This document shows positions 1 through 12,321 of a stretch of DNA of 12,515 nucleotides, piece after piece. The translations under genes were made by a program, and so were the position numbers. Positions within the stretch are counted from its first letter, which is position 1; each line of letters opens with the position of its first letter. A model generated the notes under the pieces. That model ran no database searches. It saw nothing but the letters and a program-made list of their open reading frames with translations, and was not told where the DNA came from. This DNA is from a virus (Duplodnaviria > Heunggongvirae > Uroviricota > Caudoviricetes), in IMG/VR virus record IMGVR_UViG_2531839620_000015; one strand, given 5' to 3'.

Positions 1-1541
1 TGCTTCGCCTGACCGTGGCCGCGGATGACGGCAGTGAGCGGCTGGTCAGCACGGCCCGGACGACGGAAACCACATACCGCTTCACGCAACTGGCGCTGGG
101 GAACTACAGGCTGACAGTCCGGGCGGTAAATGCGTGGGGACAGCAGGGCGATCCGGCGTCGGTATCGTTCCGGATTGCCGCACCGGCAGCGCCGTCACAG
201 ATTGAGCTGACACCGGGCTATTTTCAGATAACAGCGGTCCCGCGTCTTGCGGTGTATGACCCGACGGTACAGTTTGAGTTCTGGTTTTCGGAAACGCGGA
301 TTACCGATATCAGGCAGGTTGAAACCACAGCCCGCTACCTTGGCACGGGGCTGTACTGGATAGCCGCCAGTATCAATATCAAACCGGGCCATGATTATTA
401 CTTTTATATCCGCAGTGTGAACACCGTTGGCAAATCGGCATTTGTGGAGGCTGTTGGCCAGCCGAGTGATGATGCATCCGGCTATCTGGATTTTTTCAAA
501 GGAGAGATAGGGAAAACCCATCTGGCTCAGGAGTTGTGGACTCAGATTGATAACGGTCAGCTTGCGCCTGACCTGGCGGAAATCAGAACGTCCATCACGG
601 ATGTCAGTAATGAAATCACGCAGACCGTCAATAAGAAACTGGAAGACCAGAGTGCAGCGATCCAGCAGATACAGAAGGTTCAGGTTGATACAAATAATAA
701 CCTGAACAGCATGTGGGCAGTGAAGCTGCAGCAGATGCAGGACGGACGCCTTTATATTGCGGGTATCGGTGCCGGTATTGAGAACACCTCTGACGGCATG
801 CAGAGTCAGGTGCTGCTGGCGGCAGACAGGATTGCGATGATTAATCCTGCGAATGGCAACACAAAGCCGATGTTTGTTGGTCAGGGCGATCAGATATTCA
901 TGAATGAAGTGTTCCTGAAATATCTGACGGCTCCCACCATTACCAGTGGCGGCAATCCTCCGGCATTTTCCCTGACATCAGACGGAAAGCTGACCGCGAA
1001 AAATGCGGATATCAGTGGCAGTGTGAATGCGAACTCCGGGACGCTCAACAACGTCACGGTAAATGAAAACTGTACGATTAAGGGCATGCTGGAGGCGACT
1101 CAGGTCAGAGGTGACTTCGTTAAAGCTGTATCCAAATCATTTCCGAAACAGGCTGGTACGTGGGGTAACACGGAAACACCAAACGGGACGGTTACAGTCA
1201 CCATCAGCGATGATCATAACTTTGACCGTCAAATCATTATTCCGCCCATTATCTTTAACGGAATAGCGTATAGCGATCCGGGAAGTGGTAATAACCCGGG
1301 AGGTACAAGATACACGGGTTATGGTTTTGAAGTTCGCAAAAACGGTGTATTAATCGCATCCAGAGAAACTAAAGGGGCCATTCCCGGTAGCTACAGTGCG
1401 GTTATTGATATGCCGAGTGGCAGGGGAAGCGTCACTCTGGAGTTTAAGGTTTTCCATAAAGGCAATCAGCGGGCAGGTAATATCACCGACTGTACGGTGA
1501 TTGTGACCAAAAAAGCGGCTTCCGGCATCAGTATCCGTTGA
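1..1541 (+). CDS. J: Host-specificity / central tail fibre protein J, C-terminal ~510 aa (5' end lies off-window; reading frame begins at nt 3)
   Basis: Open frame runs from the window edge to TGA at 1539-1541. It sits immediately upstream of lom-stf-tfa, the canonical lambda order J-lom-stf-tfa. Identity rests mainly on this synteny and on size, not on a remembered sequence match. Confidence 0.75.
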
Positions 1542-1563
1542 AATATTTATAACCCTAATAACG

Positions 1564-1590
1564 GGCGCCAGAAATGGCGCCTTTTTTATT
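1564..1590 (+). terminator. Rho-independent terminator after J
   Basis: Perfect 7-bp stem GGCGCCA (1564-1570) / TGGCGCC (1575-1581) with GAAA tetraloop, followed by TTTTTT (1582-1587). Confidence 0.7.
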
Positions 1591-1611
1591 GCAGAAAATC
1601 GGGAGGTAATT

Positions 1612-2211
1612 ATGCGTAAAGTTTGTGCAGCAATTTTGTCCGCAGCCATTTGTCTGGCCGTATCCGGTGTGCCTGCATGGGCGTCTGAGCATCAGTCCAC
1701 GCTGAGCGCAGGATATCTTCATGCCAGTACGGACGCTCCCGGCAGCGATGATCTGAACGGGATTAACGTGAAATACCGTTATGAGTTTACGGACACACTG
1801 GGGCTGATTACGTCCTTCAGTTATGCCAACGCCGAAGATGAGCAAAAAACGCATTACAGCGATACCCGCTGGCATGAGGATTACGTGCGTAACCGCTGGT
1901 TCAGCGTGATGGCAGGGCCGTCTGTGCGTGTGAATGAATGGTTCAGTGCGTATGCGATGGCGGGTGTGGCTTACAGCCGTGTGTCGACTTTTTCCGGGGA
2001 TTATTTCCGCGTAACTGACAACAAGAGGAAAACGCACGACGTGCTGACCGGAAGTGATGACGCTCGCTACAGCAACACATCTCTGGCGTGGGGGGCTGGC
2101 GTGCAGTTTAACCCGACCGAATCAGTGGCCGTTGATGTCGCTTATGAAGGCTCCGGCAGCGGTGACTGGCGCACTGACGGTTTCATCGTGGGTGTCGGTT
2201 ATAAATTTTGA
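1612..2211 (+). CDS. lom: Lom, outer-membrane beta-barrel protein of the Ail/Lom/PagC/OmpX family (lambda moron)
   Basis: 199 aa. SD GGGAGG at 1601-1606, 5 nt before ATG 1612. N-terminal signal peptide MRKVCAAILSAAICLAVSGVPAWA. C-terminus ...GSGSGDWRTDGFIVGVGYKF matches lambda Lom as I remember it. Position between J and stf as in lambda. Confidence 0.9.
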   Translation: MRKVCAAILSAAICLAVSGVPAWASEHQSTLSAGYLHASTDAPGSDDLNGINVKYRYEFTDTLGLITSFSYANAEDEQKTHYSDTRWHEDYVRNRWFSVMAGPSVRVNEWFSAYAMAGVAYSRVSTFSGDYFRVTDNKRKTHDVLTGSDDARYSNTSLAWGAGVQFNPTESVAVDVAYEGSGSGDWRTDGFIVGVGYKF

Positions 2212-2232
2212 TTAGTAACACAGCGTTATGAC

Positions 2233-2262
2233 AGCCCGCCGGTTCAGGCGGGCTTTTTTGTG
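2233..2262 (+). terminator. Rho-independent terminator after lom
   Basis: Stem AGCCCGCC (2233-2240) / GGCGGGCT (2247-2254), loop GGTTCA, followed by TTTTTT (2255-2260). Confidence 0.7.
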
Positions 2263-2270
2263 GAGTGGGT

Positions 2271-5189
2271 ATGGCAGCAGTACAAATATCAGGCGTGCTG
2301 AAAGATGGTGCGGGAAAACCAATACAGAACTGCACAATCCAGCTGAAAGCAAAACGTAACAGTACCACGGTGGTGGTGAACACGGTGGCCTCTGAAAATC
2401 CGGATGAAGCCGGGCGTTACAGCATGGACGTTGAGTACGGTCAGTACAGCGTCATTCTGTTGGTGGAGGGATTCCCGCCGTCACATGCCGGGACCATCAC
2501 CGTGTATGAAGATTCTCAACCCGGTACGCTGAATGATTTTCTTGGTGCCATGACTGAGGATGATGTCCGTCCGGAGGCACTGCGCCGTTTTGAGCTGATG
2601 GTGGAAGAGGTGGCGCGTAACGCGTCCGCGGTGGCACAGAACACGGCAGCCGCGAAGAAGTCAGCCAGCGATGCCAGCACATCAGCCCGTGAGGCGGCAA
2701 CCCATGCGACTGATGCTGCGGACTCAGCACGCGCAGCCAGCACGTCAGCCGGACAGGCCGCGTCGTCGGCTCAGTCAGCGTCTTCCAGCGCAGGAACGGC
2801 ATCAACAAAGGCTACTGAAGCATCAAAAAGTGCTGCCGCTGCAGAGTCCTCAAAAAGCGCGGCGGCTACCAGTGCCGGTGCGGCGAAAACGTCAGAAACG
2901 AATGCGGCAGTGTCACAACAATCAGCCGCCACTTCTGCATCCACCGCGACCACGAAAGCGTCAGAAGCTGCCTCCTCAGCCAGGGATGCGTCGGCTTCAA
3001 AAGAGGCGGCAAAATCATCAGAAACGAGCGCAGCCTCGAGCGCCAGTAGTGCAGCCTCCTCGGCAACGGCGGCAGGCAATTCCGCGAAGGCGGCCAAAAC
3101 GTCTGAGACAAACGCTAAGTCCTCTGAAACGGCAGCAGAACAGAGTGCCTCCGCAGCAGCAGGCTCAAAAACAGCGGCTGCATTATCTGCCAGTGCCGCG
3201 TCAACAAGTGCCGGGCAGGCCTCAGCCAGTGCCACCGCCGCCGGAAAATCGGCAGAAAGTGCCGCATCGTCTGCTTCAACAGCCACAACGAAGGCTGGCG
3301 AAGCCACTGAACAGGCCAGCGCAGCAGCGAGTTCTGCTTCCGCAGCGAAGACATCCGAAACGAACGCGAAAGCGTCGGAAACCAGCGCAGAATCCTCAAA
3401 AACGGCTGCCGCATCGTCAGCCAGTTCGGCGGCGTCATCGGCATCATCTGCGTCTGCTTCAAAAGATGAGGCGACCAGACAAGCGTCAGCAGCGAAGAGC
3501 AGCGCCACGACGGCATCCACGAAGGCGACAGAGGCAGCTGGTAGTGCGACGGCAGCAGCTCAGAGCAAAAGTACGGCGGAATCTGCAGCAACGCGCGCTG
3601 AGACAGCGGCAAAACGGGCAGAGGATATTGCATCCGCCGTGGCGCTTGAGGATGCGAGCACGACGAAAAAGGGGATAGTACAGCTCAGCAGTGCGACTAA
3701 CAGCACTTCCGAGTCACTGGCGGCAACGCCAAAAGCCGTTAAGGCCGCGTATGAGCTGGCTAACGGGAAATACACCGCACAGGATGCAACGACAGCACAG
3801 AAAGGGATAGTTCAGCTTAGCAACGCGACCAACAGCACATCTGAAATGCTGGCGGCAACGCCAAAGTCGGTAAAGGCAGCCTATGACCTTGCTAACGGGA
3901 AATATACTGCTCAGGACGCTACGACAGCACAAAAAGGAATTGTCCAGCTCAGTAGTGCAACCAACAGCGCATCTGAAACGCTTGCCGCGACACCGAAAGC
4001 AGTGAAAGCAGCTAATGATAATGCGAATGGTCGGGTACCTTCTGCCCGTAAGGTGAATGGTAAGGCGCTTTCATCGGATATAACACTGACGCCGAAAGAT
4101 ATTGGTACGCTTAACTCAACAACAATGTCATTCAGCGGTGGTGCTGGTTGGTTCAAATTAGCAACGGTAACCATGCCACAGGCGAGTTCTGTTGTTTCAA
4201 TTACGTTGATTGGTGGCGCGGGATTTAACGTGGGGTCACCTCAACAGGCAGGTATATCTGAACTTGTTTTGCGTGCAGGTAATGGTAATCCGAAGGGGAT
4301 TACTGGTGCTTTATGGCAGCGCACATCGACAGGGTTTACAAATTTTGCCTGGGTCAATACATCTGGTGATACTTACGATATTTACGTTGCAATCGGAAAT
4401 TATGCGACTGGTGTAAATATTCAATGGGATTATACCAGTAATGCCAGCGTGACGATTCATACGTCACCAGCATATTCTGCTAATAAGCCGGAAGGGTTAA
4501 CGGACGGTACAGTTTATTCACTCTATACGCCATCAGAGCAGTTTTATCCGCCTGGCGCACCAATCCCGTGGCCATCAGATACCGTTCCGTCTGGCTATGC
4601 CCTGATGCAGGGGCAGACTTTTGACAAATCTGCATACCCGAAACTTGCAGCCGCTTATCCGTCAGGCGTGATCCCTGATATGCGTGGCTGGACGATTAAG
4701 GGCAAACCTGCCAGTGGTCGGGCCGTATTGTCTCAGGAACAGGACGGCATTAAATCGCACACCCACAGCGCCAGCGCATCCAGTACGGATTTGGGGACGA
4801 AAACCACATCGTCGTTTGATTACGGCACTAAATCCACGAATAACACCGGGGCGCACACGCACAGTGTGAGCGGTACAGCCGCAAGTGCCGGAAACCATAC
4901 TCATAGTGTCACAGGCGCATCAGCAGTCAGCCAGTGGTCACAAAATGGGTCAGTACATAAGGTAGTGTCTGCGGCCAGTGTGAATACAAGTGCTGCAGGA
5001 GCGCACACTCATAGTGTCAGCGGCACAGCTGCATCTGCAGGTGCTCACGCACATACTGTCGGTATTGGTGCTCATACGCACTCTGTTGCGATTGGCTCAC
5101 ATGGACACACCATCACCGTTAACGCTGCGGGTAACGCGGAAAACACTGTCAAAAACATCGCATTTAACTACATTGTGAGGCTTGCATAA
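2271..5189 (+). CDS. stf: Side tail fibre protein Stf (lambda Stf-like, 972 aa from ATG 2271)
   Basis: SD GGAG at 2262-2265, 5 nt before ATG 2271 (the ORF track starts at GTG 2265). N-terminus [17 protein letters not shown]...[16 protein letters not shown] and C-terminus ...[31 protein letters not shown] match remembered lambda Stf. Contains a long Ala/Ser/Thr-rich low-complexity region (about 2640-3640), three tandem 44-aa repeats, and His-rich HTHS motifs near the C-terminus. Confidence 0.9.
3660..4013 (+). repeat. Three tandem 132-bp (44-aa) coding repeats inside stf (phage tail-fibre repeat type), third copy truncated
   Basis: Repeat units begin at 3669, 3801 and 3933 (exact 132-nt period). 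Units read KGIVQLS[SN]ATNS[TA]SE[SMT]LAATPK[AS]VKAAY[ED][15 protein letters not shown]. Copies differ mostly at synonymous positions. Confidence 0.85.
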
Positions 5190-5767
5190 TGGCATTCAGA
5201 ATGAGTGAACAACCACGGACCATAAAAATTTATAATCTGCTGACCGGAACTAATGAATTTATTGGTGAAGGTGACGCATATATTCCGCCTCATACAGGTC
5301 TGCCAGCAAACAGTACCGATATTGCACCGCCAGATATTCCGGCTGGCTTCGTGGCTGTTTTCAACAGTAATGAGGCATCGTGGCATCTCGTTGAAGATCA
5401 TCGGGGTAAAACGGTTTATGACGTGGCTTCCGGCGACGCGTTATTTATTTCTGAACTCGGTCCGTTACCGGAAAATGTTACCTGGTTGTCGCCGGATGGA
5501 GAGTGTCAGAAGTGGAACGGCACATCCTGGGCGAAAGATGCAGAAGCAGAAAAACTGTTTCGGGTACGGGAGGCAGAAGAAACAAAAAACAGCCTGATGC
5601 AGGTAGCCAGTGAGCATATTGCGCCACTTCAGGATGCCGTAGATTTGGATATTGCGACGGAGGAAGAGGCATCGTTACTGGCTGCATGGAAGACATATCG
5701 GGTATTGTTGAATCGTGTTGATACAACAGTAGCAGCGGATGTTGAGTGGCCAGTCGCCCCACAATAA
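5189..5767 (+). CDS. tfa: Tail fibre assembly protein Tfa (lambda Tfa-like)
   Basis: 192 aa. ATG 5189 overlaps the stf stop (TAATG). N-terminus [18 protein letters not shown]...[26 protein letters not shown] matches remembered lambda Tfa. Stop TAA at 5765-5767. Confidence 0.9.
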
Positions 5768-5773
5768 AAAGAA

Positions 5774-5803
5774 AAAGCCATCGACAGAAATATCGATGGC
5801 TTT
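5774..5803. terminator. Bidirectional hairpin terminator between convergent tfa (+) and the acetyltransferase gene (-)
   Basis: 11-bp perfect stem AAAGCCATCGA (5774-5784) / TCGATGGCTTT (5793-5803) with an 8-nt loop. On the minus strand it is followed by a T-rich tract (TTTTCTTTTTATTG). On the plus strand the U-tract is weak (TTTATGT). Confidence 0.6.
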
Positions 5804-5810
5804 ATGTACT

Positions 5811-6383
5811 CTATTTATACAATACAACACCACTCTTTTTAGTTATATATGTGCAGTTTGATGGTATATCTTTATTTATAAAAGACATTGCACCTATTTT
5901 TACATTATCCCCAATTTTACGTGATAATCCAATGATGCAACAATTAGCTCCGATATCAACGTTACTACCAATTTTTACTCTTGAACTAGGCATATCACCA
6001 TCTATCTGTCCAATGGTAGTATTCTGTCGTAATACCAGATTTTCACCCGCATCAACAGCAAAATGAACAACAATTCCAGCATGATGGGGAATTGTCAACC
6101 CTTTTCCAATATTTGCGCCCAATCCTATTTCACAACCAAACTTGTTAATTATTTTACTGTTTAACTTTTTGGCTGCTTTCTTATGTAATTTATTACCATT
6201 AATATACATTTCGTTAGCCAACCGCCACCAGAAAAGGAAATTCCGGTTACGCTGCTTTTTCTCTCTTAAAAGCCTCCAGATATCCATACGTTTCCGCCGA
6301 ATTACTTCATGTTTCCAGAAGTTTTTTAAATTAGTAGAGTTTCCAAATAAAACAAAGTGAATTGCCATTAAGTAAGATAGCAC
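5811..6383 (-). CDS. Hexapeptide-repeat O-acetyltransferase, serine acetyltransferase (CysE) / WcaB-like left-handed beta-helix family; likely start GTG 6383 (the ORF track extends to GTG 6416)
   Basis: The C-terminal half shows imperfect hexapeptide repeats (IGANIGKGLTI, HAGIVV, TTIGQ, VKIGSNVDIGANCCIIG, KIGDNVKIGAMSFI), preceded by a basic/aromatic N-terminal region as in the SAT family. A perfect SD AAGGAG lies 6 nt upstream of the in-frame GTG at 6383-6381. Neither GTG 6416 nor ATG 6368 has an SD. The gene is visibly AT-rich relative to its flanks. No signal peptide or transmembrane segment is apparent. Confidence 0.7.
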   Translation of the reverse strand: MLSYLMAIHFVLFGNSTNLKNFWKHEVIRRKRMDIWRLLREKKQRNRNFLFWWRLANEMYINGNKLHKKAAKKLNSKIINKFGCEIGLGANIGKGLTIPHHAGIVVHFAVDAGENLVLRQNTTIGQIDGDMPSSRVKIGSNVDIGANCCIIGLSRKIGDNVKIGAMSFINKDIPSNCTYITKKSGVVLYK

Positions 6384-6434
6384 GATAATCTCCTTAATTA
6401 TTATTTCAGACCACACATGTTATAAGGTTAAGAG

Positions 6435-6463
6435 ATTATAAAATCCTGTTATTTGTTATTCAA
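6435..6463 (-). promoter_or_regulatory. Candidate sigma70 promoter for the acetyltransferase gene
   Basis: Read on the minus strand: -35 TTGAAT (plus coordinates 6458-6463), 17-bp spacer, -10 TATAAT (plus coordinates 6435-6440), about 50 nt upstream of the GTG 6383 start. Confidence 0.4.
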
Positions 6464-6539
6464 AAACAATTTTCTGAGAAGGACATACAACAGCAAGTCG
6501 CCAGTCACCTTCATCAGGAAATTGGCGACATACGTTAAA

Positions 6540-7028
6540 TCAGAGCAGCCCCTTAACTGAGCTGGCCGCGCTATTAAGGGATGATGTCACCTTATCTTTG
6601 AAGCCGGACAGCATATCGCTGAACGATGAGGATTGCAGGCGCTCCCGCAAATCCTCATCACAGCGTTCAAGAGTCAGTGAAAATTCTATCTTTTTCGCCT
6701 TACCGTAGCGATCAAACTCGGAGCGGGTCGTATTCGTTCCGGTCAGGACATACATGCCGTAAATCTGCCCGACGCCATCAATCAAAGGCCAAGGACGTCC
6801 TGTATATGCCTGCGTGGTCAACAACGACAGCGACACTTCGCCACCAGTAATCTCAGGATAAAGAACACCAGAAAGAACGATGCGATCATCACCTGCACCG
6901 ATATACTGCCAGCTTGCTGAACGGTTAACGCGTTCATTTTTCACATGTCGCCAGCTTTTGTTTTGCTGTAACTGCTGATGCGGCAACGTGCGCAGCTCAA
7001 AAACAAACATGCCGTAGATCATCATCAT
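6540..7028 (-). CDS. P2 gpU-like tail protein; likely start at the third Met (7028), ORF track start 7034
   Basis: Motifs LYPEITGG, WPLIDG and KIEFSL and the MMMIYGMFVF N-terminus resemble the phage P2 GpU family as I remember it. It lies immediately downstream of the tape measure, as in P2 (T-U). SD GAGGAG (7042-7037) is 8 nt from ATG 7028. The tape-measure stop (7043-7041) overlaps this SD. Confidence 0.7.
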   Translation of the reverse strand: MMMIYGMFVFELRTLPHQQLQQNKSWRHVKNERVNRSASWQYIGAGDDRIVLSGVLYPEITGGEVSLSLLTTQAYTGRPWPLIDGVGQIYGMYVLTGTNTTRSEFDRYGKAKKIEFSLTLERCDEDLRERLQSSSFSDMLSGFKDKVTSSLNSAASSVKGLL

Positions 7029-7040
7029 GGCCATGACTCC

Positions 7041-9880
7041 TCAATCTTTATCGTAAAAACTGCCACGCCTGGCACGGGCGCGCCGTTCCATTTCTGCCCT
7101 GACCATTTCGCCGACCAGTTTCGCCAGTTCGCGGGGATTCTGCGTAACAACGTTATGCAGATGAACATGAATTTCACCGCCAAATCCGGAGGCAACAGGC
7201 TCCCGGTTACGGGAAGTTGCAGGAACTGATGCCACTGGCGATCGTATGGCCTCCACCACCGGGCGGGAGCTGGCCGCAACAACAGGGACCAGCGCCGGAG
7301 GCAGCGGAGCCGGGACCACGGGTGTGATATTAATTGCGGGGGCAGGCTTACTGACCTGCGCAATCTTCCGCTCCTGCCACTCCCCACGAACAGCAAGTGC
7401 GCGGGGCAGGTTCTTAAAGACAATATCGCCGGGGCCAATGCGTTTTTTTGTCTCATCAACCAGCTTACCTGTGTTATCAGCAATTTTGCTGAGTCTGCGT
7501 AGCGTGCCGGTATTGCTGTCTGTGAGAGGTTTGTTGTCTTTGGGTTTATCATCTCCGGTGCCATTGCTATTTCCCGCAGACTTCGGCGGATTGATTTTCG
7601 CAATGTCTCCCTGAAACAGAGCAACCTTGTCCTGAAGAATGGCCGCACGTTGTGCGTCTTCGATTTTCTTGCGCGCCCTTTCCGCTTCATCCGGAAGCAC
7701 ACCGAGTTTTTCAAGTATCCACGCCAGCGTATCCAGCAACATTTTTGCAGGCGTCAGAACAAGCTGTAACGCACCACCAAGAACGTTACCGAATACCTCG
7801 CCAGCACTGGTACATTTATCCAGCGTTTCCTTGCTGGACTCCATCGGTGACAGCAGCGATTTAAACCAGTTAAACACCTGGCTGAACCGCTTCCGATTAC
7901 GTCAAAAACAGGGCCAAACCGTTCAAAGGTGTCGCGCAACGGGGTCAGCCTTTCCATAATCCCGCTGAACACCCCGGCAAAGAAAGCCCTGATAGGATCC
8001 CAGTATTTCCAGATAAGAACGGCAGCTCCGGCAAGCGCAGCCACGATAAGACCAACCGGACTGAACAACGCCCCGATAACGCCTCCCAGTAAAGAAACGG
8101 AACCCGTCACCATTCCCCATAGCGCAGGTAACACCCTGACGACATTCATTGACCGGGTAAGAATGTCAAAACCAAGACGCAGGGTGGCCAGCTTCCCGTA
8201 AAGCACCCCAATAACCAGCGACAACGAGCCAATCGTTGCAGTCATTGCCAGCAACGCACCGCCTGCTATCAGTAGCTGGCGCGTCAGTACCGGATGGGCC
8301 TGCGCCAGCGAGGTGATTTTTTCAAGCACCCGCGTGAGCCACTGCGTGACAGAACGCAGCGGACCGTCAACCAGATCACTGATGCGAATACGAAGACCTT
8401 CCCATGCGCTGTCGAGATTTTTCAGGTCCCCATCAAGATTATCAGCCATTACTTTTGCGACGCGATCGGCCTCTCCCCTTGCCCCCTGCAATTCTCTGGT
8501 CAGTTTTTGCAGCTCTCCTGAACCAGCCGCCGCAACAAGCGTCTGCAAACCAACGAACGCCTCTTCTCCGGCGATGTCCTTGAAGAAGGAGACCTGGTCC
8601 ACCTGTCCGTATTTTTGTGTCGCCTTATAGAGATCAAGCAGCACATCCTCCATCGGGCGCATTTTGCCTCTGGCGTCAGCAACTGACACCCCCAGCTCTT
8701 TCAGTGCATCAGCCGCAGCTTTTGGCGGTGATGCAAGGCGGGACAGACTTGCGCGCATGGCCGTGCCAGCATCGCTTCCGCGAAGACCATTATTGGCAAG
8801 CATCCCGGCCATGGCCGCCGCTTCTTCAAGACTGATACCAAGTTTTGCGGCAACCGGACCGGTATACTTCATGGTTTCGCCCAGCGCGCGTAAATCAGTA
8901 TTGGTCCGGGTAAATGCTGCTGTCAGCGTATCGCCCACCCGGTCCATTTGATCGGCTGTCAGGTTGAACTGTGTGAGGATATTGGAGCCTATATCAGCCG
9001 TCTCGCCGAGTTCGACGCCACCTGCCAGCGCCATATTAAGAACACCGGGCAATGCGGCCTGAATGGCCTGCGGAGTAAAACCAGCCATTGCCAGAAAGCT
9101 CTGCCCACTGGCGGCATCACTCGCAGTAAACTGTGTTTCAGCAAGTTTTAACGCCTGCTCACGCAGCGCCTTAAACTGCGGGCTGTTTTTGTCGATTCGC
9201 GTCAGTGCCTGAACGCGGGACATCTCTTTGCCGAACCCGATCGCAGGCTGCAAAAAACGCCCGGCAGCATAGCCGCCCGCCGCTGCCGCACCAATTGCCA
9301 GCGCACCACCTGTTTTCAGTTTTCCCGCGGTTTCCTGCGCGTGCGAATACCGCTCACGCGCCTGCGTTACACGCGCAAGCGCCTGCCGTTCGCGTTCAAG
9401 CTGGTTGTTGTATTGTTCGGTGCGTCTGATGGCCTGCTGAATGGTGTTATCGCTGCCTGTCAGGGAAATGCCGTGGCGTTTCAGCTCTCCGCCAAGTTCC
9501 CTCATTTTCTGAATTTCCCGTGTGCGCGATTCATTCAGGCGTTCAAGCCGGGTGCTTAACTGCTGCATCAGCTTTTGTTGTTTTTCGCTGAGCACTGTAC
9601 CCGTGCGTTGTAACTGATTAAGGGCGTTAAGCTGGCGTCGTGCTTTCACGATGCCAGCATCCGCTTTACTGACAGCGTCGCGGGCGCGCTCAAATGATCG
9701 CGCCTGACGCTCGAGATTTTTGATCGCCCCCTGCGTTCGCTGGATGGAGTCACCAAACTGCCCCATCAGGCGGCGTGCGTTTTCGGCAGGTCGGGTCAGC
9801 CTGTCAACGGCGCTGAAAGCGACCCGGATATCAAGAGTCTTCATTGTCTGCATTCCCGCTGCGAAGTGCCGCCCGCTCAC
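7041..9880 (-). pseudogene. P2-like tail tape measure protein, split into two overlapping reading frames (7754-9880, 708 aa, and 7041-7877, 278 aa) by a frameshift
   Basis: The long ORF is helix-rich with a hydrophobic/Gly-rich segment typical of tape measures, and sits between E/E' and gpU as in P2. Its last ~40 codons (…ARCLTGLNRCCHRWSPARKRW…) look non-protein-like. The other frame opens at 7901 and reads plausibly (FNWFKSLLSPMESSKETLDK…) through to a stop that overlaps the gpU SD. The start is a GTG at 9880 and is uncertain; in-frame ATGs follow at 9853 and 9844. Confidence 0.7.
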
Positions 9881-10360
9881 GCCAGCTAACCACTTCGCCG
9901 GGCGTCATCATGAAGATTTCGGCGGGCGACCAGTTAAAAATAACGGCAATATCTGCCACAAAGTCTTCTATGTGCTCAAAGCACACAACCGTGATCAGGC
10001 TTCCGTCGCCTGTTCGTTCTTCCCGCCAGAGTCCGCACCGCTCAAAAAATTTACGGCAACCACACATAACTGAATAAAGTCACGGGATGCCATTTTTTTG
10101 ATCGTCACTTCATCCAGTCGCGGTGATGTCACGCGTGACAGCAGCGTAAACATGGATTCCGCTTTCAGATTCAGCACATCAGACAGCGACAAATCTCGCA
10201 GAGATCCAGCCTGCTCAATAGCCCCGGTGATCTCCACATACGTGATTTTTTCGCCGCCTCGCTCAATTGGTTGGGTAAGTTTTACACCACGCTCACTGGT
10301 TTCTTTCACAGTGTCAGTAACTACCGTGTTTTCGGTATCGATGTTTTTCGTCTCTTTCAT
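9831..10360 (-). CDS. Tail assembly chaperone E+E' fusion, made by programmed -1 ribosomal frameshift
   Basis: Minus-strand heptamer TTTTTTG (plus coordinates 10043-10049) lies in the E / E' overlap. The -1 frame continues open for about 70 codons (…KFFERCGLWREERTGDGSLITVVCFEHIEDF…) to TGA at 9833-9831, overlapping the tape-measure start, as in P2 E/E'-T. Confidence 0.6.
9995..10360 (-). CDS. Tail assembly chaperone, P2 gpE-like (121 aa)
   Basis: SD AAGGAG 7 nt before ATG 10360. Small acidic protein between the tube gene and the tape measure, with the slippery site in its 3' part, as for P2 E. Confidence 0.65.
   Translation of the reverse strand: MKETKNIDTENTVVTDTVKETSERGVKLTQPIERGGEKITYVEITGAIEQAGSLRDLSLSDVLNLKAESMFTLLSRVTSPRLDEVTIKKMASRDFIQLCVVAVNFLSGADSGGKNEQATEA
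10043..10049 (-). promoter_or_regulatory. Slippery heptamer TTTTTTG for the E/E' -1 frameshift
   Basis: Sequence GTA AAT TTT TTG AGC in the E frame; the T6G run is the classic chaperone slip site of P2-like and other long-tailed phages. Confidence 0.6.
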
Positions 10361-10414
10361 CAGGAAACTCCTTTCAGTCAGAGGCGACGCACTGCGCCGC
10401 CTGCATATTACTTA

Positions 10415-10927
10415 TCAGCCAAGCCCAAGCGCGGAACGGATGCGATCGGGCACAATGTCCTTGCCGTCCTTCCGGTAAATGAAGTTCAGCAGGTCAATCT
10501 CCCACAACGGGCGATCGTTAACACTCAGCTTGTAGTAGGTGTTTTTAATGGCGTAAGTGTGTGATGTGGCTTCGCCCTGTTTGGCTTCCCCCATATCAAT
10601 TTCCGTCACACGTCCGCGCATTTCGACTTCATACAGGTCGCTTTCATCATCGGTGTAGTATTCCCCCGCAAAACGCAGTAGCGTGCCGTCAATCGTGCCG
10701 CCATACTTCAGGAACAGCTCACGAACTGCGCCCCCCATGACAAAGCTCGCATCAAGCGCGGAGTCGTCCAGGCCGAGGTCAATACTTACCGCACCCATCA
10801 TGCCACCACCCCGGTAGCTGTCGGTTTTGCGCGTCAGTTTAGGCAGGGTGACGGACGTCACCTTACCCACTTCGTTTTCACCATCCACAAACAGCGTAAA
10901 AAAGCGAAGATGTTTTGGTACAGCCAT
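10415..10927 (-). CDS. Major tail tube protein (P2 FII-like, 170 aa)
   Basis: Motif VTLPKLTRKTDSYRGGGM and overall length match remembered P2 FII. ATG 10927 overlaps the sheath stop (TGATG). SD GGAGGT upstream. Confidence 0.85.
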   Translation of the reverse strand: MAVPKHLRFFTLFVDGENEVGKVTSVTLPKLTRKTDSYRGGGMMGAVSIDLGLDDSALDASFVMGGAVRELFLKYGGTIDGTLLRFAGEYYTDDESDLYEVEMRGRVTEIDMGEAKQGEATSHTYAIKNTYYKLSVNDRPLWEIDLLNFIYRKDGKDIVPDRIRSALGLG

Positions 10928-12111
10928 CAGGCACCTCCCAGCACCGCAAATGCGGGACCAAAGAATTCATCAGTAAACGACTGGTAAAGCTCCATGTCTT
11001 CCAGCGGAGGAACGGGCGTATATTTGTAGCGAATACGCACACGCCCCTGACGTAAATTCGTGGTGCTGTTATCCTCGATGTCATACCAGCACTCCGCGCC
11101 AATCAGTTTCCCGGCAGTAACCAGTGAATCCAGTTTTGCCCTGATGGCACTGATAACATCCTTCACGTTCGCAGGTGTCAGTGGACTGTCGATGGTTTCA
11201 AACTGCGCTTCCGCAATTGAATCAGCCAGCACCTGTGCGGTTCGGGTATACACCTCAAAGATGTAGGCGTTCGTTTCCGGTGTGCGGTTGCCCCAGAAGC
11301 GGAACCCGTTGCGACGAATAATGGTCGTGATTTCTTTGTTGTTGAGGCTGTTGGCATCACTGTCTTCGGCCTGCAACGACCAGAACACATGCCTCGACAT
11401 CCCAAGCACATTTTTAACCGGAACGTTGGACAGCGATTTGTGCCAGCCCTGCTCATGGTCAATGTACGCACGAAGGCCGCACGCATAAGCAGGCGCGGGG
11501 AACGTTTCGTTTTTGCCACTTTTCAGGTTGTAGGCGATGAAGTCAGGCCATAAGAGCATCACCTCACGTTCGTTGAATTTCTGGCGGTAGGTAATCGCCT
11601 CAGCCATCGTGTTACAACCATGACATGTGGCATACACAAACGCGCGCAGTTTACCCGCAATCACGCACAGGGATTTTGTTACCGCCTCCGTGTCCAGCTC
11701 CGGCGCGGCCAGAATACGCGGACGGTATCCGATGCTTTCATCCTGCTCTGCAACAAGCAGCGCATACATCCCCGTATAGCTGCCGTCAGATTCAGAACCA
11801 CCGATAACCAGTTGATCCTGCGTCTTACCGCCTTCTTCTTTGTGTTCAGCCACGCGAACGACGATCACTTTTGTGCTCACCTGGTCTGCGATAGCCTTAA
11901 GCGCACGATAAAGCGTCCCCGTAGTCCCGCATTTTCCCAGCACGTCATTGACGCGGGTCAGCAGTGTGGGCTTGTTCAGCGGGAACAGCTCCGCGTCCGC
12001 ATCATCTGCCGTTGCCACGATACCGATAACACTGGAATCAACATCATTAATCGCTGTTACCAGGTCGGTACTTTCCGTAACACGGGCACCATGAAAACGA
12101 GTTTCACTCAT
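10927..12111 (-). CDS. Contractile tail sheath protein (P2 FI-like, 394 aa)
   Basis: Motifs GFRFWGNRT, YTRTAQV and YTPVPPLE and the length match remembered P2 FI. SD AAGGGG 8 nt before ATG 12111. Confidence 0.9.
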   Translation of the reverse strand: MSETRFHGARVTESTDLVTAINDVDSSVIGIVATADDADAELFPLNKPTLLTRVNDVLGKCGTTGTLYRALKAIADQVSTKVIVVRVAEHKEEGGKTQDQLVIGGSESDGSYTGMYALLVAEQDESIGYRPRILAAPELDTEAVTKSLCVIAGKLRAFVYATCHGCNTMAEAITYRQKFNEREVMLLWPDFIAYNLKSGKNETFPAPAYACGLRAYIDHEQGWHKSLSNVPVKNVLGMSRHVFWSLQAEDSDANSLNNKEITTIIRRNGFRFWGNRTPETNAYIFEVYTRTAQVLADSIAEAQFETIDSPLTPANVKDVISAIRAKLDSLVTAGKLIGAECWYDIEDNSTTNLRQGRVRIRYKYTPVPPLEDMELYQSFTDEFFGPAFAVLGGA

Positions 12112-12268
12112 AGCTTCAGCCCCTTGTATCCGTTAAATGATTCGGCAACAATCATCACCCACCACGCGCGTAATCTCACCCCTGCGCCGTTCTCCCGCCA
12201 CGGCGACAACAAAAAGCAGTAACCCCCTCCGCACGCACATGCGACCATGCCGCACAGGGAGGGAACAG

Positions 12269-12321
12269 ATGACCGACACCACCATGCAATTGCTCAGTCA
12301 GGGCACAGACCACGTGAAAGT
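12269..12321 (+). other. 5' fragment (17 codons, MTDTTMQLLSQGTDHVK) of an ORF with a strong RBS, apparently cut by the IS insertion
   Basis: SD GGGAGGG 6 nt upstream of ATG 12269. The reading frame runs directly into the IS terminal sequence at 12322. Too short to assign a function. Confidence 0.3.

Follow-up and report, generated by a model that had tools for sequence, protein, structure and literature searches.

What is a gene that databases name for serine metabolism doing among the tail genes of a prophage? The question is raised by a 12,515-nucleotide stretch of caudoviricete DNA (IMG/VR record IMGVR_UViG_2531839620_000015), referred to here as the window, which constitutes the whole of the 12.5-kb draft contig AOEK01000082.1. 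On its minus strand, between the tail fibre assembly gene tfa and the tail gene gpU, lies an AT-rich gene encoding an acetyltransferase of 190 amino acids. The product of the identical DNA in Escherichia coli O157:H7 is recorded in RefSeq as WP_000954203.1 under the name "serine O-acetyltransferase". For the reasons given below we conclude that the protein is an acyltransferase of the CysE architecture, predicted to be active, whose acceptor would be other than serine, and that the database name is probably a misnomer. As to its role, a soluble O-acetyltransferase of lipopolysaccharide (LPS) or another envelope glycan, which would mask the phage receptor in lysogens, is the leading candidate, and we put its chances at about even.

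A CysE-type acyltransferase, probably with an acceptor other than serine

The first-pass annotation of the window had described a soluble left-handed beta-helix (LbH) acyltransferase resembling CysE and WcaB, a description borne out by NCBIfam profiles, PDB matches and an AlphaFold (AF2) model. The model, for which a 36-sequence alignment served as input, consists of five N-terminal helices followed by a C-terminal beta-helix (predicted local distance difference test, pLDDT, 84; predicted template modelling score, pTM, 0.80) and displays the left-handed beta-helix hexapeptide fold. Serine acetyltransferases are the best PDB matches by sequence as well as by structure (e.g. 6wye, 4n69 and 1t3d), the alignments covering only residues 54-180 of the query, that is, the last helices and the beta-helix. 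In the BFVD library of viral structures no match to the enzyme was found below E = 1. The top NCBIfam families are the polysaccharide-associated EpsC, cysE and WcaB, and no curated cut-off was passed: EpsC scored 76.2 versus a cut-off of 150, WcaB 55.8 versus 196 and 54.4 versus 194.65, and the serine acetyltransferase models TIGR01172 and PRK11132 62.4 versus 210.65 bits and 36.6 versus 397, respectively. A profile check for the hexapeptide repeat and the serine acetyltransferase (SATase) N-terminal domain, proposed with the first annotation, gave a divided answer: the beta-helix fold is present, but Hexapep, the only Pfam family found at E <= 0.01, remained below its threshold (24.4 versus 27 bits), and the SATase N-terminal domain was not detected at that E-value. 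A transmembrane or secreted enzyme was rejected by a crude test, the Kyte-Doolittle 19-residue mean, which reaches a maximum of 1.1 at the N-terminal helix.

The alignment to CysE separates residues that are kept from those that are not. His100 aligns with the His of the CysE motif LDHATG, which compared with the CysE of Neisseria gonorrhoeae has become IPHHAG in the enzyme, and is at least 90% conserved among 36 relatives. Glu85 corresponds to the Asp of VDIHP, a position occupied by Glu or Asp throughout the family. We take these two residues to be the general base and its acidic partner, as in CysE. The position of the Asp in the CysE 'DH' pair is occupied by Pro99, and by Pro or a variable residue in the family, while that of GGDRHP corresponds to a variable loop, DMPSSRV in the enzyme. 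In the CysE structures of E. coli, where the protein has ~273 residues, and Haemophilus influenzae, Asp157 (E. coli numbering) binds the amino group of serine, Arg192 and His193 hold its carboxylate and side chain, and a tail ending in Ile docks into CysK; the C-terminus of the enzyme reads ...SGVVLYK and has no terminal Ile. Since the serine-binding residues, the SATase N-terminal domain and the CysK tail are all missing, and the curated cut-offs were failed, an acceptor other than serine is indicated. A conserved N-terminal FLFWWRLANEMY segment in the enzyme family marks, by sequence criteria, a distinct subfamily.

The RefSeq name and the best PDB matches would both suit a serine O-acetyltransferase that would raise cysteine synthesis in lysogeny or infection. 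The large shortfall in score, the undetected N-terminal domain in a protein of 190 rather than ~273 residues, the replacement of serine-binding residues at positions that vary within the family, and the C-terminal ...VLYK in place of a CysK-binding Ile tail make this highly improbable, and the cut-offs, the domain content and the residues of the active site led us to reject a true serine acetyltransferase. A true cysE paralogue, the outcome that would have spoken against the first-pass annotation, was thus not what was found, all curated cut-offs being missed.

An envelope glycan as candidate acceptor

The surroundings of relatives in other bacteria and phages point to the cell envelope. A homologue in Leminorella (48% identity) is located in a waa-type LPS core locus with glycosyltransferase genes of families GT4 and GT8 and with WaaY (E = 3e-102), and is also adjoined by a convergent gene of the Wzy_C/O-antigen-ligase family. 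In Pseudomonas the homologue follows a GT2 gene by 4 nt, with genes for a WaaP-family kinase and a UDP-sugar dehydrogenase beside it, and in Intestinirhabdus it is found beside ugd and arn genes. Prophages of Xenorhabdus bovienii (L176-L178, 5001-6393) have a homologue and, after it, a GT25 'LPS biosynthesis' gene between integrase and fibre, and in a 45-kb viral contig (L150, 912-2445) the homologue is paired with a gene of the HtrL_YibB family. The acetyltransferase gene itself is found in many O-serogroups of E. coli (O157, O55, O104, O103, O111 and O84), which suggests a conserved acceptor and not one O-antigen. P2, P1 and Mu-type phages with Tfa-chaperoned fibres adsorb to the LPS core. 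Taken together, the waa and glycosyltransferase context, the LPS-core-binding phages and the many serogroups identify LPS, especially its core, as the foremost candidate acceptor. The link to surface polysaccharides that had been suggested at first has in this way gained contextual support, from the waa-cluster relatives, the GT25 and HtrL_YibB partners and the adjacency to tfa.

In the mechanism that we propose, the enzyme would be a soluble acetyl-CoA-dependent O-acetyltransferase acting at the cytoplasmic face of the inner membrane, and its acceptor a cell-envelope glycan, most likely the LPS core oligosaccharide, acetylated before export. Transcription in the lysogen could start from the gene's own AT-rich promoter region, and transcripts of the late tail operon may in addition run through into the gene; expression at the late stage is just as possible, as the gene is situated downstream of, and co-directional with, that operon. 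The acetylated LPS would present an altered receptor to LPS-binding contractile-tail phages, and the outcome would be less superinfection of lysogens and fewer progeny lost on debris, with a possible incidental change in antigenicity.

Gene structure, signals and constraint

The features discussed are collected in Table 1.

Table 1. Coordinates of the acetyltransferase gene, its putative signals and neighbouring genes in the window.
Feature	Position	Strand	Remarks
Acetyltransferase gene, 190 aa, CysE-fold hexapeptide (LbH) acyltransferase	5811..6383	-	GTG 6383-6381, TAG 5813-5811
Shine-Dalgarno AAGGAG of acetyltransferase gene	6390..6395	-	6-nt spacer to GTG; sequence read directly
Promoter-like sigma-70 site TTGAAT-17-TATAAT	6435..6463	-	10/12 matches; predicted transcription start ~6428
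Hairpin between gpU stop and promoter-like site, core GUCGCCA...UGGCGAC	6497..6529	-	-22 kcal/mol, z = -4.6
13-bp GC-containing hairpin between convergent stops of tfa (5767) and acetyltransferase gene (5811)	5774..5803	both	Bidirectional terminator candidate
tfa, tail fibre assembly protein (Tfa/gpG type)	5189..5767	+	Caudo_TAP 6.4e-40
Tail fibre gene	2271..5189	+	PF08400, Phage_fiber_2, Collar; His-rich tip
gpU tail gene, last of inverted FI-FII-E-T-U block	6540..7034	-	Phage_P2_GpU 1.5e-38
J, C-terminal part	15-1541		Lambdoid
lom (Ail/Lom outer-membrane protein), classical lambdoid moron	1612-2211	+	Ail_Lom, E = 1.8e-131

The acetyltransferase gene is the sole minus-strand open reading frame (ORF) in the spacer between the stops of tfa (5767) and gpU (6540), and the unit reads, on its own strand, hairpin, promoter-like site, Shine-Dalgarno sequence, coding sequence (CDS) and terminator. 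A GTG start preceded by a good Shine-Dalgarno sequence, as originally proposed, is confirmed by the AAGGAG 6 nt from the GTG and by RefSeq, which annotates exactly 5811-6383, whereas a mechanical ORF list starts at an upstream GTG at 6416. This start is further supported by diverged alleles of other phages, which have an ATG at the very codon of the GTG at 6383, and AAGGAG is kept in both the P2-like contexts of the gene and those of the type seen in a different myovirus-type prophage, L004. The composition agrees with the initial view of an AT-rich, foreign moron with signals of its own: the GC content is 34.0% in the CDS (28.8% at third codon positions) and 32.7% in the upstream spacer, against 48-56% in the neighbouring genes and 52.3% in the window.

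The promoter-like site is kept in the P2-like lineage, also where the amino acid identity of the CDS is down to 70%, is altered in a second context and is replaced in P1-like phages. The hairpin between the convergent stops folds at -19.6 kcal/mol on the acetyltransferase strand (5803-5774), where a U-run follows, and at -16.1 kcal/mol on the tfa (plus) strand; on either strand 0 shuffles fold as well. It is 100% conserved relative to the prophage locus L179 despite the diverged middle of the CDS there, and these values agree with a candidate terminator common to tfa and the acetyltransferase gene, as already suspected in the first reading. The upstream hairpin (6497-6529) may weakly terminate transcription of the inverted tail operon, and since no clean U-run follows it, read-through into the acetyltransferase gene may occur. 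No heptanucleotide or tandem repeats, such as would allow NeuO-like phase variation, were found in 5700-6600.

The gene is real and, judged by its substitution pattern, under purifying selection. The ratio of nonsynonymous to synonymous substitution rates (dN/dS) is 0.10-0.15 in pairwise comparisons with five alleles at dS from 0.12 to 3.0. The protein matches phrog_2154, a PHROG of unknown function, at E = 2.9e-87 (residues 13-190 versus profile positions 3-181 of 185), and a search of 5.8 billion proteins yielded 336 relatives, mostly from Enterobacterales. Comparison of window 5701-6493 with L179 (4760-5700) reveals a mosaic allele, in which identity is 88-100% over the promoter region and first ~17 codons and again over the 3' end and terminator, but only 35-72% in the middle of the CDS; the proteins are 70% identical. 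An exchange of the catalytic core, with the flanks conserved, seems to have taken place.

Linkage to tfa and the tail fibre

A constant convergent neighbour of the gene is tfa, and the 44-nt spacing between the two is the same in P2-like, P1-like and other prophages. The 3' part of the tail fibre gene belongs to the same block, which is common to different phage types. From the fibre 3' part through tfa and the 44 nt to the acetyltransferase gene, the window has ~91% nucleotide identity with the P1-like phage-plasmid JL22 (segments 4100-4832 and 5052-6382, ~91-92%), where the block is part of the invertible C segment, and the block is also shared with L004. At its far edge the homology reaches the start codon in JL22 and slightly passes the promoter-like site in L004. 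Convergent geometry of tfa and the acetyltransferase gene is kept in lineages whose enzymes have 85, 70, 67, 63 and 45% identity, and in Citrobacter phage phiNP (44%) and Hafnia phage yong2 (35%). The layout of fibre, tfa and convergent acetyltransferase gene is seen in Gilliamella-type contigs too, and in Buttiauxella and Xenorhabdus prophages a homologue adjoins the fibre gene itself. In a related P2-like prophage (loci L179-L181, 5617-6605) a truncated tfa remnant and a gene for a class-I S-adenosylmethionine (SAM) methyltransferase, additional cargo of this site, stand between the acetyltransferase gene and a full-length tfa.

The identities of enzyme and Tfa fall together, the respective pairs being 99/99, 91/92, 85/68, 70/86, 67/44, 63/48 and 45/38%. 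A strict pairing of enzyme allele and fibre tip was rejected, as tips diverge beside a near-identical enzyme. Because Tfa co-diverges and the tips vary, the stable partner is Tfa and not a given fibre tip. A more specific and rather doubtful extension of this would be that enzyme and Tfa constitute a portable two-gene unit recombining between P2-like, P1-like and other myovirus-type phages, in which the enzyme would O-acetylate the LPS-core epitope of those fibres that are matured or capped by that Tfa family. With the fibre module, a phage would thereby obtain exclusion of phages using the same receptor, and swapping of the central part of the enzyme might retune its acceptor specificity.

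Distribution and phage context

Of 5,426 complete E. coli genomes, 530 (~10%) contain the 773-bp region with the gene; the match spans both junctions in 510 of them, and 66 of the places found are on plasmids. Positions 3678-12321 of the window match P2-like prophages of O157:H7, O55:H7, O104:H4 and others. In complete genomes of this lineage V-W-J-I-H-G are encoded on one strand and the acetyltransferase, U, T, E, FII and FI on the other, followed by D and ogr. Relative to phage P2 the FI-U block is inverted (window 6540-12111, minus strand; 20774-27616 in the prophage L003), D and ogr being on the other strand. As a result of this inversion it is gpU, and not FI, that adjoins the acetyltransferase gene, directly upstream and co-directional with it, and the same order is found in O104:H4 and other prophages. 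In P2-like contigs of canonical order (L145 and L149) the gene is placed between G and FI, antisense to both. It thus occupies P2 'moron position 2', that is, a site for cargo of foreign composition between G and the F operon, antisense to G. Destruction of gpD by the inversion was considered and rejected: in L003 the D gene is intact and divergent from FI, and tblastn recovers P2 D residues 15-383.

One of the O157:H7 prophages, that of strain PV15-279 (L001, 7655-22476), is decayed. Its holin gene has an internal stop, its tape measure gene is cut by IS1203 and its gpD is truncated; in addition, its fibre gene is split, the 3' part being annotated as 'macro domain-containing protein'. The acetyltransferase gene in this prophage is intact, with DNA 100% identical over window 5768-6540. 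Its integrity in a prophage with three broken genes fits, weakly, a benefit to the lysogen.

Enteropathogenic E. coli (EPEC) plasmids of the EPEC adherence factor (EAF) type (L169-L172, 5001-5594) carry a homologue of 50% identity, located among IS66 elements a few hundred bases downstream of the bfp pilus genes.

Weighing the proposed role

Several observations weigh against a receptor-masking LPS or envelope-glycan O-acetyltransferase. The first concern expression. The near-consensus sigma-70 promoter claimed at the outset is present as a motif, but four promoter-like sites were found in 5000-7200 compared with 5.0 +/- 2.4 in shuffled sequences; as the count in this AT-rich stretch is not above chance, the match alone provides no evidence, and expression in the lysogen is inferred from a match of chance level. 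As to the chemistry, we know of no precedent for a beta-helix enzyme that O-acetylates the E. coli LPS core, the known O-acetylases of LPS core or lipooligosaccharide being membrane acyltransferases. The site is, moreover, a generic moron position with unrelated cargo (fun(Z) in P2, neaT in CFT073 and the methyltransferase in L179), and the linkage to tfa could be hitch-hiking at such a site. Among loci with a 97-99% identical enzyme the last 250 fibre residues are 66-100% identical, and near-identical enzymes occur with tips of only 66-76% identity, which argues against a one-to-one match of enzyme and receptor-binding tip. Nor are homologues always neighbours of tail-fibre genes, as a check suggested with the first annotation had envisaged: copies away from tail genes are found on the EAF-type plasmid, in a Salmonella islet, at prophage ends by hok/Abi and as orphan chromosomal genes, and some homologues adjoin Abi, HicAB, VapBC-type or Wadjet JetD genes. 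Finally, the gene has already been annotated and noted by others, who recorded it as unexplained cargo (PMC9603915; PMC6456863). No functional characterization was found in the literature, queries for the accession, for superinfection and for hotspots returning empty or irrelevant results.

Two other explanations draw on the same observations. In one, the enzyme would modify a surface glycan (O-antigen, capsule, colanic acid or enterobacterial common antigen) to the benefit of the host, changing the serotype or assisting immune evasion in the manner of NeuO or neaT, and the tfa site would be merely permissive. A moron site filled by such different genes, the intact copy in the decayed O157:H7 prophage, the homologues near bfp on the EAF-type plasmid and fibre tips that vary independently of the enzyme all speak for this reading. 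We nevertheless regard this as unlikely, since the many O-serogroups argue for a conserved acceptor, the chromosomal relatives reside in core (waa) and not in O-antigen clusters, and the adjacency to tfa is kept down to 35% identity across genera.

In the other explanation the target is inside the cell and is not a glycan: the enzyme would acetylate, for example, a small molecule, a pool of nucleotide sugars, a protein, a toxin or an antibiotic, and would serve in defence, counter-defence or detoxification. Cargo that consists of one AT-rich gene and travels on prophages, plasmids and islets is characteristic of defence genes, and the neighbours of the Abi, HicAB, VapBC and JetD kinds may be added to this. 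The variable loci of P2 hold exclusion genes, and fun(Z), at the same site, blocks T5. Against this, 0 defence families of PADLOC-DB v2 match the enzyme at E <= 1, none of the 23 NCBIfam matches is a xenobiotic, chloramphenicol or streptogramin acetyltransferase, and the nearest chromosomal relatives are in LPS clusters, all of which renders such a target improbable. A xenobiotic or antibiotic acetyltransferase in the narrower sense was rejected, none of these families being among the 23 matches.

Window architecture and a second accessory gene

The acetyltransferase gene had initially been taken for the only non-structural gene in the window. This is wrong: with lom, the window has a second accessory gene. 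The lambdoid part extends over positions 1-3677 (J C-terminus, lom and stf N-terminus), and P2-like DNA begins at 3678. The fibre encoded across this point is chimeric, with a lambda-Stf-type N-terminus (PF08400), a long Ala/Ser-rich tract, P2-like repeats, a collar and a His-rich tip. The lambdoid and P2-like parts are contiguous in no complete E. coli genome searched, and the junction near 3678 is inside a fibre repeat common to both fibre types; it may represent a recombinant fibre or an assembly join at the shared repeat. The early description of the gene as sitting at the seam of two tail modules is correct insofar as a lambdoid J-lom-stf block and a P2-like block exist, but the join is within the fibre gene and may be an assembly artefact. 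The tape measure gene (7041-9880, minus strand) lacks 1 nt near 7886 (CCC to CC) when compared with its O104:H4 homologue and is thereby split, residues 1-654 and 646-935 being in different frames; either the prophage is defective or a sequencing error in the homopolymer is responsible.

Significance and comparison with known systems

About one in ten complete E. coli genomes, including those of O157:H7, O104:H4, O103 and O111 pathogens, as well as P1-like phage-plasmids, carry this gene under a probably wrong metabolic name. If the acetylation of LPS is true, the gene represents an unrecognized form of lysogenic conversion that affects phage susceptibility and is relevant to phage therapy and phage typing; antigenicity might change too, and a receptor-masking cargo would be travelling with tail-fibre modules between phage families. 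If it is false, the gene is an ordinary uncharacterized moron.

By the tests applied, the enzyme is placed outside the CysE, WcaB, EpsC and NeuO families, although it has features in common with each. Like CysE it has kept the catalytic His and its acidic partner; unlike CysE it is ~80 residues shorter and is devoid of the full SATase N-terminal domain, of the serine-binding Asp/Arg/His and of the CysK tail, and its gene, in contrast to housekeeping cysE, is mobile, AT-rich and phage-borne. WcaB and EpsC, which act in exopolysaccharide synthesis, are likewise short CysE-like beta-helix enzymes and belong to the best NCBIfam families, but the scores are well below their cut-offs and the gene is located between phage tail genes, not in a colanic-acid or exopolysaccharide operon. 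NeuO of the K1 prophage CUS-3 (PDB 3jqy) is, as proposed for the present enzyme, a prophage-borne beta-helix O-acetyltransferase; its gene adjoins that of the receptor-binding tailspike, and the receptor that it modifies is the one used by CUS-3 itself. The acetyltransferase gene differs in having no heptanucleotide repeat tract and no apparent K1 capsule context, and the enzyme is not closely similar to NeuO/OatWY in sequence or structure. NeuO serves as no more than an analogue.

Two further genes are counterparts by position. The P2 gene fun(Z) occupies the same site, convergent to G and beyond the operon terminator, and is a non-essential lysogenic-conversion or exclusion gene; its product is an unrelated protein of 528 residues and no acyltransferase. 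The gene neaT of CFT073 also shares P2 moron position 2 next to G/tfa, the antisense orientation and an acyltransferase product (PMC3573123, where the site is named "moron position 2"). Both it and the acetyltransferase gene are AT-rich and patchy in distribution, neaT having 30% GC and being rare (PMC3573123), while the acetyltransferase gene, in ~10% of complete E. coli genomes, is far commoner. The integral-membrane product of neaT (Acyl_transf_3, PF01757) has a fold unrelated to the soluble beta-helix described here, and it changes the aggregation and phagocyte interaction of CFT073 (PMC3573123). The best reading of these comparisons is that the enzyme would work most like a seroconverting or receptor-modifying prophage enzyme and that it is the positional counterpart of fun(Z) and neaT.

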